A DNA stretch of 46,054 bases from Escherichia phage vB_EcoS_ACG-M12. The stretch lies in sequence record NC_019404.1; one strand, 5' to 3'. Both the position numbers and the translations under genes were made by a program. Below, piece after piece: positions 12,435 through 17,152 of the stretch. Every line of letters begins with the position of its first letter. Within the stretch, counting starts at the first letter, position 1. The notes under the pieces were generated by a model. That model saw only the letters and a list, made by a program, of their open reading frames with translations, was not told where the DNA came from and made no database searches.

Positions 12435-13091
12435 ATGGCCCATCTCAGCAATGGCACGCAGGTCTTCGTAGAAGGCTCTCGCGGAGCTGCAATTGACGTA
12501 ACAGCAATTTCTAACGCAGTTACACCTGTTTTAACTGTATCTGACGCATCCGGCGTGGCTGAGGGTGATTACCTGCTTTTCACCTCCTCAGCCTCTGCGC
12601 TTCTGGCTGACAAGCAAGTTCGCGTAACCGCAGTCTCTGGCACCTCGGTAACTGTTGAGGGTATTGATACCTCAAGCACTACCAAATTCCCTGCTGGTTT
12701 AACTGGTGAGGTTGTCAAGATTACTTCATGGTTCGAAGTTCCGTGCGTTCAGGACGTATCTACTGACGGCGGCGAGCAGCAGTTCGTTAACTTCCAGTGT
12801 CTTTCTGATGACCGTGAACAGCAGATTCCGACTTATAAATCTGCCGTAACAAACACCTTTACCTTTGCTCACGAGTACACCAACCCGGTTTATCCGGTTC
12901 TGCGTAACTACGATGAGTCTGGCCAGGTTGTTGCGATTCGCCTGTTCGTACCTCGCGCTCAGGAAATGCGCTTGCAGTCCGGCACTATCGCTTTCAACGA
13001 CACCCCTACCATTGGTGTTAACGAAATCGAAACGGTATCTATCGCGGTATCCATTCGTGGTCGCTTGTCCTCCGTGGCAGCTGAAGTTTAA
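12435..13091 (+). CDS. major tail protein (218 aa)
   Basis: Position directly upstream of the chaperone/tape-measure genes; followed by a strong terminator. Confidence 0.6.
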   Translation: MAHLSNGTQVFVEGSRGAAIDVTAISNAVTPVLTVSDASGVAEGDYLLFTSSASALLADKQVRVTAVSGTSVTVEGIDTSSTTKFPAGLTGEVVKITSWFEVPCVQDVSTDGGEQQFVNFQCLSDDREQQIPTYKSAVTNTFTFAHEYTNPVYPVLRNYDESGQVVAIRLFVPRAQEMRLQSGTIAFNDTPTIGVNEIETVSIAVSIRGRLSSVAAEV

Positions 13092-13098
13092 AACACAA

Positions 13099-13121
13099 AC
13101 CCTCTTCGGAGGGTTTTTTTA
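13099..13121 (+). terminator. rho-independent terminator
   Basis: ACCCTC-ttcg-GAGGGT plus T7. Confidence 0.7.
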
Positions 13122-13124
13122 TTG

Positions 13125-13200
13125 ATAGCACTTTTTGTTAAAGACTAAAAATCAAAATGCTGTATAGTTCAATCATCGAAACGAAATGAGAAATTAAGAA
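13125..13200 (+). promoter_or_regulatory. conserved intergenic cassette (GATAGCACTTTTTGTTAAA ... TGTATAGTT ... CATCGAAACGAAATGAG)
   Basis: Precedes gene 13201. Confidence 0.5.
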
Positions 13201-13467
13201 ATGAATAGTAAGTTAGAAGTATTATCCGCACTTCGCGGCCCTATTTGTGTAGCTGCGCTGGTTGCCTTTTATGCAGCAGTTCAGATTATCAACCCAACAA
13301 GAGCGGAAACAGCAAACTCTGACGCGGCAAAATACAATTCGGTTTTCTCTGAGCACAAGGCAATCTGCGAGAAGGCTTCTGGTAGCAAGATTGATCAGGT
13401 TCTGAAGTATGGCAAGGAAATCTGCGTAGATATCGCGCACGACATTGCAAAAGAAAGCACTAAGTAA
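13201..13467 (+). CDS. hypothetical protein with N-terminal hydrophobic segment (88 aa), moron-like, inside the tail module
   Basis: Own cassette; hydrophobic stretch ICVAALVAFYAAVQII near the N-terminus. Confidence 0.45.
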   Translation: MNSKLEVLSALRGPICVAALVAFYAAVQIINPTRAETANSDAAKYNSVFSEHKAICEKASGSKIDQVLKYGKEICVDIAHDIAKESTK

Positions 13468-13503
13468 TACAATAATCAAACACTAAAAAAGAGGATTAAC
13501 GAG

Positions 13504-13818
13504 ATGGCAAAGTTCAAACTTTCACTAGCGGCACTACCTGACTTTAAACTGCCTGTAAAATTCAAGCTAGCTAACGACCAGGATGTAGAGGTTATGTTCA
13601 CAGTTAAGCACAAGAAAACTTCTGAACTGCAGGAGTTGCTTAACAAGGAAAACCTGAGCACTAAAGAGCTTATTATGGCAATTGCCTCTGATTGGGATTT
13701 AGAGGAAGAGTACAATGAGGAAAACGTTAATGAGTTCTCCGATCTGTTCCCGGCTTCAACCGTTGCTTTGACTACTGCTTACATGCAGGCACTGGCGGGT
13801 CAGCGAGTAAAAAACTAA
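13504..13818 (+). CDS. tail assembly chaperone (G-like, 104 aa)
   Basis: Immediately upstream of the tape measure; ends with the slippery heptamer A_AAA_AAC then TAA. Confidence 0.6.
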   Translation: MAKFKLSLAALPDFKLPVKFKLANDQDVEVMFTVKHKKTSELQELLNKENLSTKELIMAIASDWDLEEEYNEENVNEFSDLFPASTVALTTAYMQALAGQRVKN

Positions 13819-14138
13819 AGAGGGCGGTGTATCTACAGTACCAGTCAGAGCCAACTGATGCCGAACTGGAGGCTATTGGGATGCGCCGCTCTGATTACGA
13901 AGATGAAGAGCCTGAAGTTTTACACTTCGACGAAAACATGATGAAAGCATGGGACATTTACTGTTCAATGGCTACGCAGTGGAGAGTCGGAGCTAACGGA
14001 GCTACAGGTCTAGATTACAACGTGCTAAATTTCCTCTTTAGAGTGTATAATGTCTCAGAAGAAGAATTGGTGCTCAGCGATTTACGCATCCTTGAAGCTA
14101 AGGCTCTTGAGATGATGGATAACCTGAGAAAAAAATAA
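13504..14138 (+). CDS. predicted frameshifted chaperone fusion (GT-like) via -1 slip at 13809-13815
   Basis: ORF 13827..14138 is in the -1 frame relative to 13504..13818 and has no ATG of its own (track start is GTG); classic arrangement before the tape measure. Confidence 0.5.
13809..13815 (+). other. candidate -1 programmed frameshift site A_AAA_AAC
   Basis: X_XXY_YYZ heptamer in the zero frame (GTA AAA AAC TAA); the -1 frame stays open into ORF 13827..14138. Confidence 0.55.
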
Positions 14139-14158
14139 CCCGCTTCGGCGGGTTTTCT
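14138..14158 (+). terminator. terminator-like hairpin (attenuator?)
   Basis: ACCCGC-ttcg-GCGGGT followed by TTTTCT; the tape measure gene starts 16 nt later. Confidence 0.4.
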
Positions 14159-14173
14159 ATTATGGAGGCTTAG

Positions 14174-17152
14174 ATGGCAACAAATGAATTAGCCGGAATC
14201 ACACTAGCCGTAGACGTCTCGCAGGTAGACAGGGGAACGCAATCCCTACAAAAGTTCAGACAGGCCAACCAACAGGCTGCATCTGGGATTAGTGAGTTCG
14301 TCAATGCTGAGCAGGTTGCTAAAAACCAGGCTAGAGATACCGCTCGCGCACTTGCTGAGCAACAGGCATCTTTAGCTAAATTGCAAACAGCTATTGATCC
14401 AACCGCTGCAAAGTTCCGCAAGCTGCAAGAGGCTGCTGTAGGTCTGGATAAGGCATTCGCGGCTGGAGTAGTTCCTGATGAGGAGTTTTTCCGATTAGGT
14501 GAAGCCCTTGAAACGCAGAACGCAAAACTTGCTCGTTCACGTGCGGCACTAACTGAGGAGGGTAGAGCGGCAGCTCAGGCCGCAAAAGATAAAGCAAAGG
14601 CAAAGGCTGAAGCTGATAGGTTCATTGCGTCACTTGAGCGCCAGGCTCAAGCGGCAACATTGACGCGCGAAGAGTATCTAAAGTTACAGGCTGCTCAGCT
14701 TGGCGTAAGTTCTCAGGCGGCACCTATTATTGACAGAATCGCCGATGCATCACAGAAGGCAAACACCCAGCTAATTGCTCAGAGTAAGGCTTTTCAGAAA
14801 TCAGGATTAAGCGCGGGTCAATACAAGAATGCAATTTCTCAGCTGCCAGCGCAGATTACTGATATTGGCACGTCGCTTGCTGGCGGCATTCCGATTTGGC
14901 TTATTGCAATTCAGCAAGGTGGGCAGATCAAGGATGCATTTGGCGGTATTGGTAACACATTTAGATTCGCGCTTGCAGCCTTAAACCCATTCAATGTAGC
15001 TGTTGGTGTTTTGGGTGGGGCGCTTGTAGCTCTTGGTGTTGGTGCGGCTCAGGCTGAAAGTGAATTCAGAGCATTAAACTCCGCAATTGCTTTCTCCAAC
15101 AACTCTACAATCGCATCAATTTCGCAGGTTAGAGAGTTGGTTAGCTCTGTTTCTGATGCAACAGGTGCCACCAGAGGACTTGTGACTAGCATCGCAACAA
15201 GCCTTATTGAGCAAGGGAACCTTACGCTGACGCAGATTGACAAGATTACTAAATCGACCGCAAGATGGGCGCAGTTGACAGGTAAGGATGCGAAGGAGAT
15301 TACTGGTTACTATAACCAGATTGCAAGCGACCCAATCCAGGGTTTAGTTGATTTGGATAAGCGCTTTAACTTCCTCACACAGGGGCAGTTGACGACAATC
15401 GAAAACCTGAGAAAGACAAAGGGAGAAGTTGAGGCCGTTACTGCTGCGATTGATATTTTCAGCAAGTCTCAGGAAGCCAACCTTAACGACATAGCTGCGC
15501 AGTTAACTCCGCTTGAGCTAGCCTGGAATGATTTCAGAAAGTACATCTCTGATATATGGGATGCAATTAGCCGTAGAACGGTTGGGGCTCTAAACCTGTT
15601 TGTTGACGTAATCGCCGGAACAATTGAGCAGATCAGGGTCTTCATTAATCAGGGTGATGCGCTGATTGGTGAATTCGTAATTAGCGCAACTCAGGCATTG
15701 CAGAACATTCCTGGTCTTGATGGCGTTGGTGATGATGTTATCAAGGGGCAGCAGAAGATTATCGATGCCGCCAAGAAGCAAAACCTTGAGCTAGAGAAGT
15801 CTATCAAGGAGCGCGATGCCAGAATCAGAGAGGGAGAGCTTGGTTACGTTACTCGCAGAGAAAATCAGAATACCAATGAGCAGTCAGGTACTGATGAGGA
15901 ATTTGCAAAAAGGAAGAAGGCGCTTCAGGATGAGCTTGATGCGATCAAGAAGAACAGGAAAGAAGAAAATAGTAGGGTTAAGGAGCAAAGAGATTTAACA
16001 ATTGGTTATGAATATGGCGTTCTGGCGCTTCAGGCTCAACTCAAGGCGCTTCAGGAAAACAGGGATATTGGCGCAGTAATAAGCAATGAGCGCAAGCAGT
16101 ATCTTCAGGAGGAGGCCAAATTCAGGATTCTTGAGCAGAGACAACTTGATGGCTCAATTACCAAAGAGCAAGCAAGACTTCTCATTGAAAAGGATAAAGT
16201 TCTTGAGTTAGCCAGACAGAAGGCTGAGCTAGGTGATCAGATTGTTTTGCAGGAGCGAGCTAATAAGTTAGCTGAAGATAACCGCAAGAAGATTCTTCAG
16301 ATTAACAATGAGGCAAGTAACATTGATTTGGGTGCTGGTTTATCATCTCGCGAGCAGCAGAGAGCCAAAGAGATTCAGGCTCTTCAATCCAATCAGGTTA
16401 ATGCTGGTGGTTCTGTTGATGATGTTGATTTTCAGCAATTACTGGAAGCAAGAAAGGAATACTACAAGCAGGAGGATAATCTTAGGTCAGACTGGCAATC
16501 CGGTGTAACATCCACTCTCGCCGACTTGACAGAGAAGTACACTGACTACAACCAGATTGCTAAGGACTTAACTGTTGCGGCATTCGATGGAATTACAGAA
16601 CAGATTACAAACCTTGTAACCACTGGTGAGACTAATTTCAGAGATTTCACAGCAAGCATCCTCAAAATGATTGCGAAGATTGCAACTCAGTTACTTTTGG
16701 TTAAGGCCATCGAATCAACATTGACTAGTTTTGGTGGTGGGGGAGGTAACGTGTTTGGCTCACTTGCATCTGCCATAGGTTTTGCTGGTGGCGGCTATAC
16801 TGGTGATGGTGGGAAGTATCAGCCAGCAGGAACGGTGCACCGTGGTGAGTTTGTATTCACAAAAGAAGCGACAAGCAGAATTGGCGTGAAAAACCTTTAC
16901 GCGCTGATGAAGGGTTATGCGAATGGCGGCGCTGTTGGTGGTCCTTCCGGTTATGCGAATGGTGGTTTGGTTTCTGGTGGAACTGATGTTAATGTTAGCG
17001 GCATCACTGTTAACGTAAATTCCGGTTTGGGTGGCGACTCAGAGCAAGCAAAAGCATTGCAGAGTGGCGTCAAGGCTATCGTAGCGGAAGAAATTGCTCA
17101 GTCTTTCCAGCAGGGTGGCAGGGCGTATGCCTATTTGAGAGGTTTTAACTAA
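14174..17152 (+). CDS. tail tape measure protein (992 aa)
   Basis: Largest tail gene after the chaperones; long Ala/Gln/Glu-rich coiled coil; Gly-rich C-terminal region. Confidence 0.8.
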   Translation: MATNELAGITLAVDVSQVDRGTQSLQKFRQANQQAASGISEFVNAEQVAKNQARDTARALAEQQASLAKLQTAIDPTAAKFRKLQEAAVGLDKAFAAGVVPDEEFFRLGEALETQNAKLARSRAALTEEGRAAAQAAKDKAKAKAEADRFIASLERQAQAATLTREEYLKLQAAQLGVSSQAAPIIDRIADASQKANTQLIAQSKAFQKSGLSAGQYKNAISQLPAQITDIGTSLAGGIPIWLIAIQQGGQIKDAFGGIGNTFRFALAALNPFNVAVGVLGGALVALGVGAAQAESEFRALNSAIAFSNNSTIASISQVRELVSSVSDATGATRGLVTSIATSLIEQGNLTLTQIDKITKSTARWAQLTGKDAKEITGYYNQIASDPIQGLVDLDKRFNFLTQGQLTTIENLRKTKGEVEAVTAAIDIFSKSQEANLNDIAAQLTPLELAWNDFRKYISDIWDAISRRTVGALNLFVDVIAGTIEQIRVFINQGDALIGEFVISATQALQNIPGLDGVGDDVIKGQQKIIDAAKKQNLELEKSIKERDARIREGELGYVTRRENQNTNEQSGTDEEFAKRKKALQDELDAIKKNRKEENSRVKEQRDLTIGYEYGVLALQAQLKALQENRDIGAVISNERKQYLQEEAKFRILEQRQLDGSITKEQARLLIEKDKVLELARQKAELGDQIVLQERANKLAEDNRKKILQINNEASNIDLGAGLSSREQQRAKEIQALQSNQVNAGGSVDDVDFQQLLEARKEYYKQEDNLRSDWQSGVTSTLADLTEKYTDYNQIAKDLTVAAFDGITEQITNLVTTGETNFRDFTASILKMIAKIATQLLLVKAIESTLTSFGGGGGNVFGSLASAIGFAGGGYTGDGGKYQPAGTVHRGEFVFTKEATSRIGVKNLYALMKGYANGGAVGGPSGYANGGLVSGGTDVNVSGITVNVNSGLGGDSEQAKALQSGVKAIVAEEIAQSFQQGGRAYAYLRGFN

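Follow-up and report, generated by a model that had tools for sequence, protein, structure and literature searches.

The stretch of DNA studied here, 46,054 nucleotides (nt) of Escherichia phage vB_EcoS_ACG-M12 (sequence record NC_019404.1), is called hereafter the window. Between its major tail gene and its tape measure gene lie two small overlapping reading frames, G and T, which are candidates for a tail assembly chaperone pair joined by a programmed -1 ribosomal frameshift. The features of the G/T junction are listed below, protein lengths being given in amino acids (aa).

13489..13495, plus strand: Shine-Dalgarno sequence AAGAGGA of gene G, 8 nt ahead of ATG 13504, read from the sequence
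13504..13818, plus strand: gene G, whose ATG is at 13504, encoding in the zero frame the tail assembly (tape measure) chaperone of 104 aa
13809..13815, plus strand: slippery heptamer A_AAA_AAC, in phase, on the final two sense codons of G
13816..13818, plus strand: TAA stop codon of G, directly 3' of the heptamer, which shifted ribosomes are proposed to bypass
13815..14138, plus strand: T segment, the -1 frame extension, of 107 codons plus stop counted from the re-read C13815
13818..13829, plus strand: AAGAGG (13818-13823), GCG and GTG (13827-13829), candidate start for a separate T protein of 103 aa, considered incidental
13821..13892, plus strand: predicted stimulatory RNA hairpin of 72 nt, starting 5 nt past the heptamer

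Anatomy of the G/T junction

In the zero frame, the 3' end of G reads CGA (13804), GTA (13807), AAA (13810), AAC (13813) and TAA (13816-13818). The codon reading GTA AAA AAC TAA makes A_AAA_AAC a heptamer of the X_XXY_YYZ form in the correct phase, abutting the stop codon, and thereby confirms an earlier note, made from the letters of the window, which had placed this heptamer at 13809-13815, at the 3' end of the open reading frame (ORF) 13504..13818. The same note had described a downstream ORF in the -1 frame that is open from the slip site, and this is what is found. The ORF given as 13827..14138 is read in the -1 frame with respect to G (13827-13503 is divisible by 3). This frame opens at 13734, which lies 25 codons 5' of the heptamer and 27 codons short of the final sense codon of G, with a 27-codon overlap between the two frames. 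It closes at TAA 14136-14138, 36 nt ahead of the tape measure gene. The predicted GT fusion, 13504..13815 joined to 13815..14138, is 211 aa long, with the junction ...QRVKN-LKRAVYLQYQ...

Both products belong to described families. Pfam PF08748, Phage_TAC_4, matches the G product over its full length (E=4.4e-33, 114.6 bits for a cut-off of 21.1), and the T product matches PF08809, DUF1799 (E=2.8e-16, 59.9 bits for a cut-off of 26). G aligns with positions 1-107 and T with positions 109-210 of the same 213-position profile, phrog_17368, and G also matches phrog_569. Since phrog_17368 spans G and then T, fused G-T proteins are already present in phage databases. A search of the PDB gave no entry related by sequence to the chaperone pair.

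In the plus strand ORFs of the window, in-phase XXXYYYZ heptamers number 39 per 11,367 codons. The probability that chance alone places an in-phase heptamer somewhere within the 27-codon overlap is about 9%; for the final two sense codons it is about 0.3%. At these levels the heptamer of the single sequence is suggestive, and it is the comparative data that take it far beyond chance.

Conservation of the shift site in related phages

Junctions were gathered from 68 IMG/VR loci found with the T segment as query and from annotated GenBank loci, and were analysed by script. This gave 60 distinct junctions, whose T part is 33-100% identical to that of the window. In 58 of the 60, T is read in the -1 frame with respect to the C-terminus of G. 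A perfect in-phase heptamer occupies the equivalent place in 50 junctions (A_AAA_AAC in 34, G_GGA_AAC in 15, A_AAA_AAG in one), and in nearly all relatives it abuts the stop codon; in locus L058, A_AAA_AAG sits ten codons before the stop. The homologues of G share the C-terminal motif R-x-K/G-N-stop. The type of heptamer varies, so that G carries Lys or Gly, while the X_XXY_YYZ form is kept, which argues for selection on the nucleotides. Moreover, the -1 frame opens just six codons 5' of the slip site in several relatives, which leaves no alternative position for the shift.

Eight of the 60 junctions have a reduced in-phase site, GCA_AAG_GTC in a Rogunavirinae-like clade and GCA_AAA_GTT in Weberviruses. 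In these two clades without the full heptamer (L017-L021 and L078, with Klebsiella phage Opt-79, for the former; L005-L007 and L077 for the latter), the sites read GCA_AAG_GTC_TAA and GCA_AAA_GTT_TAA, the -1 arrangement is kept, and there is no start codon near the start of T. The shift would perhaps proceed there by slippage of a single tRNA-Lys on A_AAR. In a high-GC relative, seen in L061 and L062 (IMG/VR 3300037458_002000 and 3300037461_001774), the heptamer appears to be G_AAA_AAC, not a perfect X_XXY_YYZ, and the T frame is open for about 420 codons upstream, through all of G and the preceding gene. L061 retains the -1 relation and a G C-terminus reading ...RRKN*, a perfect heptamer being unconfirmed there.

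The first of the two frame exceptions, L008 (ENA ERZ27336856 NODE_101157), has a single 206-aa ORF (P0014) at 173-793, with both Phage_TAC_4 and DUF1799. Its junction reads ...GTT TAC CTA CTG AGG GCG..., in a contig of 811 nt with 2.6x coverage, and it is either a natural in-frame G-T fusion or an assembly error. The second is phage 2725-N35 (L001, MN840485.1), which at about 1870-1880 of its locus has five A, not six, in the slip run (GTAAAAACTAA). Its G is consequently annotated as a 117-aa protein that runs into the +1 frame and overlaps T. The five-A run is probably a homopolymer sequencing error, and could be a real variant. Another locus, L038, was considered as a +1 arrangement and rejected: the indel is in the body of G, and the junction is a normal GCA AAA AAC TAA.

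Database searches with T gave the same boundary. Homology to T was found by tblastn in 1,155 phage records, beginning at the first -1 codon past the heptamer, and an exhaustive search of 1.84 billion representative proteins gave 512 T homologues. Distant homologues, whose called starts are arbitrary, become alignable exactly at (K)KLK.AA.AL, that is, from the slip site onward. A word-indexed protein search with the 211-aa fusion returned one match and was uninformative.

The coding signature changes frame at the heptamer

Site variability was calculated over 32 distinct, ungapped Drexlerviridae sequences. On the 5' side of the heptamer it is highest at the third positions of the G frame (1.50 bits versus 0.77 and 0.48), and on the 3' side at the third positions of the T frame (1.23 versus 0.49 and 0.40). 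The T-frame pattern already holds for the four codons that separate the heptamer from GTG 13827 (0.81 versus 0.36 and 0.22). The heptamer is thus the exact point at which the protein-coding signature changes from that of the G frame to that of the -1 frame.

A hairpin is predicted downstream of the slip site

The predicted hairpin consists of a lower stem of 14 base pairs, between 13821-13834 and 13879-13892, and of an inner stem in which 13836-13845 pairs with 13865-13869 and 13874-13878. The minimum free energy for 13816-13910 is -35.1 kcal/mol, which corresponds to z=-4.3 relative to dinucleotide shuffles (0/200), and the comparison with synonymous recodings of the same peptide gives z=-3.7 (0/500). 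The 5-nt gap that separates the heptamer from the structure is the usual spacing of -1 frameshift stimulators. At the same position, T1-like genomes have a short hairpin, GGGCGGUUU...AAACCGCC (z=-5.1 versus recoding over 41 nt), and Weberviruses and several high-GC lineages have different hairpins of their own. The recoding control used the codon usage of the window and is biased for high-GC relatives (L045, L059, L064), so that it was relied on only for the window, T1 and Webervirus.

Alternative explanations for the expression of T

T could be a free 103-aa protein, initiated at GTG 13827 by means of AAGAGG, or by termination-reinitiation after TAA 13816, the heptamer being a coincidence. 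In the window and some close relatives the GTG does stand 3 nt behind GAGG, Escherichia virus ECH1 has an ATG in its place, and the distance of only 8 nt from stop to GTG permits translational coupling. The earlier note had denied T both an ATG and a Shine-Dalgarno sequence of its own. There is indeed no ATG nearby, the first one in the -1 ORF being at 13881, but GTG 13827 exists, and the second statement is inexact, since AAGAGG 13818-13823 precedes this GTG, though it is unconserved, badly spaced and predicted to be base-paired. It is also true that every close relative is annotated with two separate genes. However, the T of phage lambda is itself a separate RefSeq coding sequence (CDS), starting at a GTG beside the slip site and with no joined GT product (NC_001416, L081 1216-1650), yet it is made as the gpGT frameshift fusion; as lambda GT is established by experiment and nevertheless annotated separately, the separate genes of the relatives are no evidence against frameshifting.

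The comparison of relatives makes a free T quite unlikely. The four codons before GTG 13827, LKRA in the window, read L-K/R-R/K-A throughout the 32 sequences, with Arg encoded by AGG, CGA, CGG or CGC; they are kept as amino acids through synonymous changes, 5' of the supposed start. The codon aligned with GTG 13827 is itself GTG in eight sequences, ATG in one, GTT in 13, GTA in six and GTC in four. A start codon is therefore present in 9/32, and the GTT, GTA or GTC of the other 23 indicate that this position simply encodes valine and is not a conserved start. In T1, damhaus and several others, the T frame contains no ATG, GTG or TTG between its upstream stop and 30 codons past the heptamer, and the annotations of these phages either omit T or shorten it to an internal ATG. 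Nor is AAGAGG conserved: EC3a- and Rtp-like relatives have AAACGA in its place. In the window its spacer to the GTG, GCG, is 3 nt long, shorter than usual, all twelve bases of AAGAGG/GCG/GTG are paired in the predicted hairpin, and in the T frame the same bases read K-R-A-V. Conserved LKRA residues, unconserved start signals and startless relatives together indicate that the conserved expression of T is as a C-terminal extension of G, and a free T does not appear, from these alignments, to be what selection maintains.

A second start-like signal was observed further downstream, where GGAGG lies 8 nt 5' of ATG 13881, at codon 23 of T (13868-13883). It is a good-looking internal start, for which relatives have GGAAG, so that the motif is specific to the window. 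In other clades, gene callers and database proteins (P0002 and P0005, 84-aa forms) begin T at the Met of codon 23.

Transcriptional slippage would bring the two frames together without any shift of the ribosome, if RNA polymerase added one A in the A6 run 13809-13814, to give the junction ...VKK-LKRAV.... One extra A does put T in frame with G, and the five A recorded for 2725-N35 indicate that the length of the run is labile, at least in sequencing. Yet the known bacterial cases of transcriptional slippage use runs of about nine or more, which counts against the polymerase here. Besides, 15 of the 60 junctions have G_GGA_AAC and others only CAAAAG or CAAAG, sequences which offer no usable homopolymer and which ribosomal slippage still fits, and the conserved feature is the phase-specific X_XXY_YYZ, not the length of the run. 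We consider polymerase slippage very improbable. That the T frame is unexpressed, the overlap being a chance open frame, is hardly credible given the DUF1799 match, the homologues in 1,155 phage records and among 512 representative proteins, and the third-position-biased variability of T in its own frame.

Proposed mechanism

Very probably, then, a -1 ribosomal frameshift at 13809-13815 yields the 211-aa GT fusion. G and T would be the two tail assembly chaperone genes of this T1/Rtp-like siphophage. We infer that most ribosomes would stop at TAA 13816 and release the 104-aa chaperone G, and that a minority would slip back by one base on A_AAA_AAC, with tRNA-Lys passing from one AAA to another and tRNA-Asn from AAC onto AAA. 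The slipped ribosomes would read C13815 a second time, now as the start of the codon CTA, and go on in the -1 frame to 14138. The hairpin 13821-13892, possibly with the adjacent stop codon, probably pauses the ribosome and sets the frequency of the shift; the AAGAGG/GTG, considered incidental, would be masked by it too. On the model of lambda gpG/gpGT, the tape measure protein would be bound by the G part, and recruitment of the major tail protein would fall to the T part; G would have to be in large excess over GT, and the virion would contain neither. Mature virions of lambda lack both gpG and gpGT (PMC5009743), so that mass spectrometry of virions, which the earlier note proposed as an alternative to that of infected cells, would probably miss the product.

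Several observations weigh against this account. In E. coli, A_AAA_AAC is far less shift-prone than A_AAA_AAG (PMC5009743), and the efficiency of the shift may accordingly be low. The Rogunavirinae-like clade has neither a perfect heptamer nor a predicted hairpin (z>0). The window clade, unlike most relatives, has a GTG (ATG in ECH1) at 3 nt from GAGG, and free T from GTG 13827, by initiation or re-initiation, may be a minor by-product in this clade. A search of the literature for protein, reporter or genetic data on this phage or on any Drexlerviridae found none. As for the hairpin, hardly any variation occurs in its arms within the clade, and no compensatory substitutions, hence no support from covariation, were seen in them; diversity within the clade is low at 13834-13923, and equally low elsewhere in T, so that it is not distinctive. 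For these two reasons the role of the hairpin is one that we infer.

A broader and more tentative reading, which we hold to be rather unlikely, is that the frameshift signal has been remade repeatedly within this chaperone family, whose members would form a natural series, with hairpins swapped for unrelated ones between clades. The Rogunavirinae-like clade and the Weberviruses would then appear to get by with just the A_AAR tetranucleotide. Were it correct, the common stimulator might be the adjacent stop codon, and not the tandem slip plus structure.

Gene neighbourhood and affiliation of the phage

The features around the pair are the following.

12435..13091, plus strand: major tail (tube) protein gene, 218 aa, annotated in ECH1 at the same coordinates, with homologues in EC3a and 2725-N35
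13097-13116: second terminator-like hairpin, with a UUCG loop and a T-rich tail, just 3' of the major tail gene
13201..13467: ORF of 88 aa, located after the major tail gene and before G, matching phrog_22925 (unknown function), hypothetical in all relatives
14137..14154, plus strand: terminator-like hairpin, with a UUCG loop and a T-rich tail, overlapping the stop of T, ahead of the tape measure gene
14174..17152, plus strand: tape measure protein gene, 992 aa, matching phrog_24 (E=1.6e-232) and so annotated in relatives

The gene order, major tail gene, G, T and tape measure gene, is the classical one, apart from the 88-aa ORF ahead of G, and the 992-aa tape measure protein is the presumed client of the chaperone. 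The idea of a conserved G/GT arrangement upstream of the tape measure gene, already put forward from the single sequence, is supported by this synteny, by the 58 junctions in the -1 frame and by the 50 heptamers. The 88-aa ORF gave no match in a Pfam search, and represents an insertion into the canonical V-G-T-H order. The two hairpins flank a cassette made of this ORF, G and T, and relatives annotate terminators at both places; for the one at 14137..14154, a terminator is annotated at the equivalent position in EC3a, PhiKpNIH-2 and Stevie. The two hairpins may grade expression among the tube, chaperone and tape measure genes.

Judging from its DNA, the phage is a coliphage of the Drexlerviridae, Braunvirinae, Guelphvirus, like ECH1 and SCS31, and is related to Rtp and T1. 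The window is 96.7% identical to ECH1 (MN164484.2; 1-base offset), and has the same ORF coordinates as vB_EcoS_SCS31. The window and SCS31 (ON081052.1) are both 46,054 nt long, yet they differ at 108 of the 1,397 sites of 13101-14497. The differences cluster in G, where they reach about 16%, and almost none are found in 13798-13903. Such uneven divergence suggests mosaic exchange in the tail module among Guelphviruses.

Consequences for annotation

The main value of the analysis lies in annotation: a single chaperone gene, which yields a protein of 104 aa and, by -1 frameshifting, one of 211 aa, is proposed. In the GenBank records of the genus and of near relatives (ECH1, SCS31, EC3a, BEK2 and JeanPiccard) two small genes are listed, which often bear the wrong label, "tail length tape measure protein" or "hypothetical protein", and in other Drexlerviridae records T is missed or cut to an internal ATG. 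Nothing new is added to the biology of frameshifting or of tail assembly. The collected junctions constitute a comparative set of shift sites with position-equivalent hairpins, which could serve to calibrate frameshift predictors.

Comparison with known systems

Lambda gpG and gpGT are reportedly related by a -1 frameshift at G_GGA_AAG, in work said to be that of Levin et al. (1993) and Xu et al. (2004, 2013, 2014), and Xu, Hendrix and Duda are said to have defined in 2004 a class of G/GT-type tail assembly chaperones with a conserved -1 programmed frameshift. In lambda, the G to GT ratio is about 30:1 and is critical for assembly (Atkins et al. 2016 review, PMC5009743), G binds the tape measure protein and the T domain binds the major tail protein, and the frameshift is widely conserved among long-tailed phages (PMC5009743). 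PMC3296357 was a further source for the statements on lambda. Lambda and the window are alike in having, between the major tail and tape measure genes, a short chaperone ORF followed by a -1 extension, and in carrying an X_XXY_YYZ heptamer, in phase, close to where G ends. The G_GGA_AAC of 15 junctions from relatives of the window is one base away from the lambda heptamer.

The two systems differ in several respects. The stop codon of G is five codons 3' of the heptamer in lambda, whereas it abuts the heptamer in the window; the A-site codon is AAG (Lys) in the former and AAC (Asn) in the latter; and the lambda proteins are longer, with 140 and about 279 aa. The Pfam families are also different, PF06894 (Phage_TAC_2) and PF06223 (Phage_tail_T) for lambda versus PF08748 and PF08809 for the window. 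The G and T of the window gave no match to PF06894 or PF06223 at E<=1, where the lambda proteins themselves gave 9e-62 and 2e-14, and blastp detected no significant similarity between them and lambda G and GT (E>0.05). The pair of the window is therefore lambda-like in mechanism and position, and not a demonstrable member of the lambda protein families. The g-t sites of the haloarchaeal siphoviruses HCTV-1, HCTV-2 and HCTV-5 use the same three heptamers as the family of the window; their hosts are archaea, and the resemblance is one of shift-site choice only.

Closer at hand, a frameshift of this kind, at the orthologous site, has already been recognised in related phages. Citrobacter phage Stevie (NC_027350) and Klebsiella phages Sanco (MK618657) and Skenny have orthologous genes (40-59% identity for G, 49-62% for T), and these T1-like phages show the same synteny and the same -1 relation as the window. 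According to the genome papers of Stevie and Skenny, a frameshift analogous to that of lambda G/GT is conserved in the tape measure chaperones of T1-like phages (PMC4319613, PMC6763657). In Stevie the site, GTA AAA AAC TAA, is identical to that of the window, and the record has a curated joined CDS; it spans 632 nt, and the span plus one, 633, equals 3 x 211 codons including the stop, which fits a -1 shift. Sanco has a joined CDS named "tape measure chaperone frameshift protein", with a site that is only GCA AAA GTT, not a full heptamer. For Guelphvirus, a literature search found no paper that ties it to frameshifting, and a mention of DUF1799 only in an unrelated genome paper; in Guelphvirus and close relatives, unlike in Stevie and Sanco, the records list two separate genes. 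The window clade further differs from T1-like genomes by a GTG or ATG at codon 5 of T, and by the 72-nt hairpin that replaces the short one. Taken by sequence, the pair of the window is a straightforward member of the Drexlerviridae chaperone pair (Phage_TAC_4 plus DUF1799; phrog_17368).

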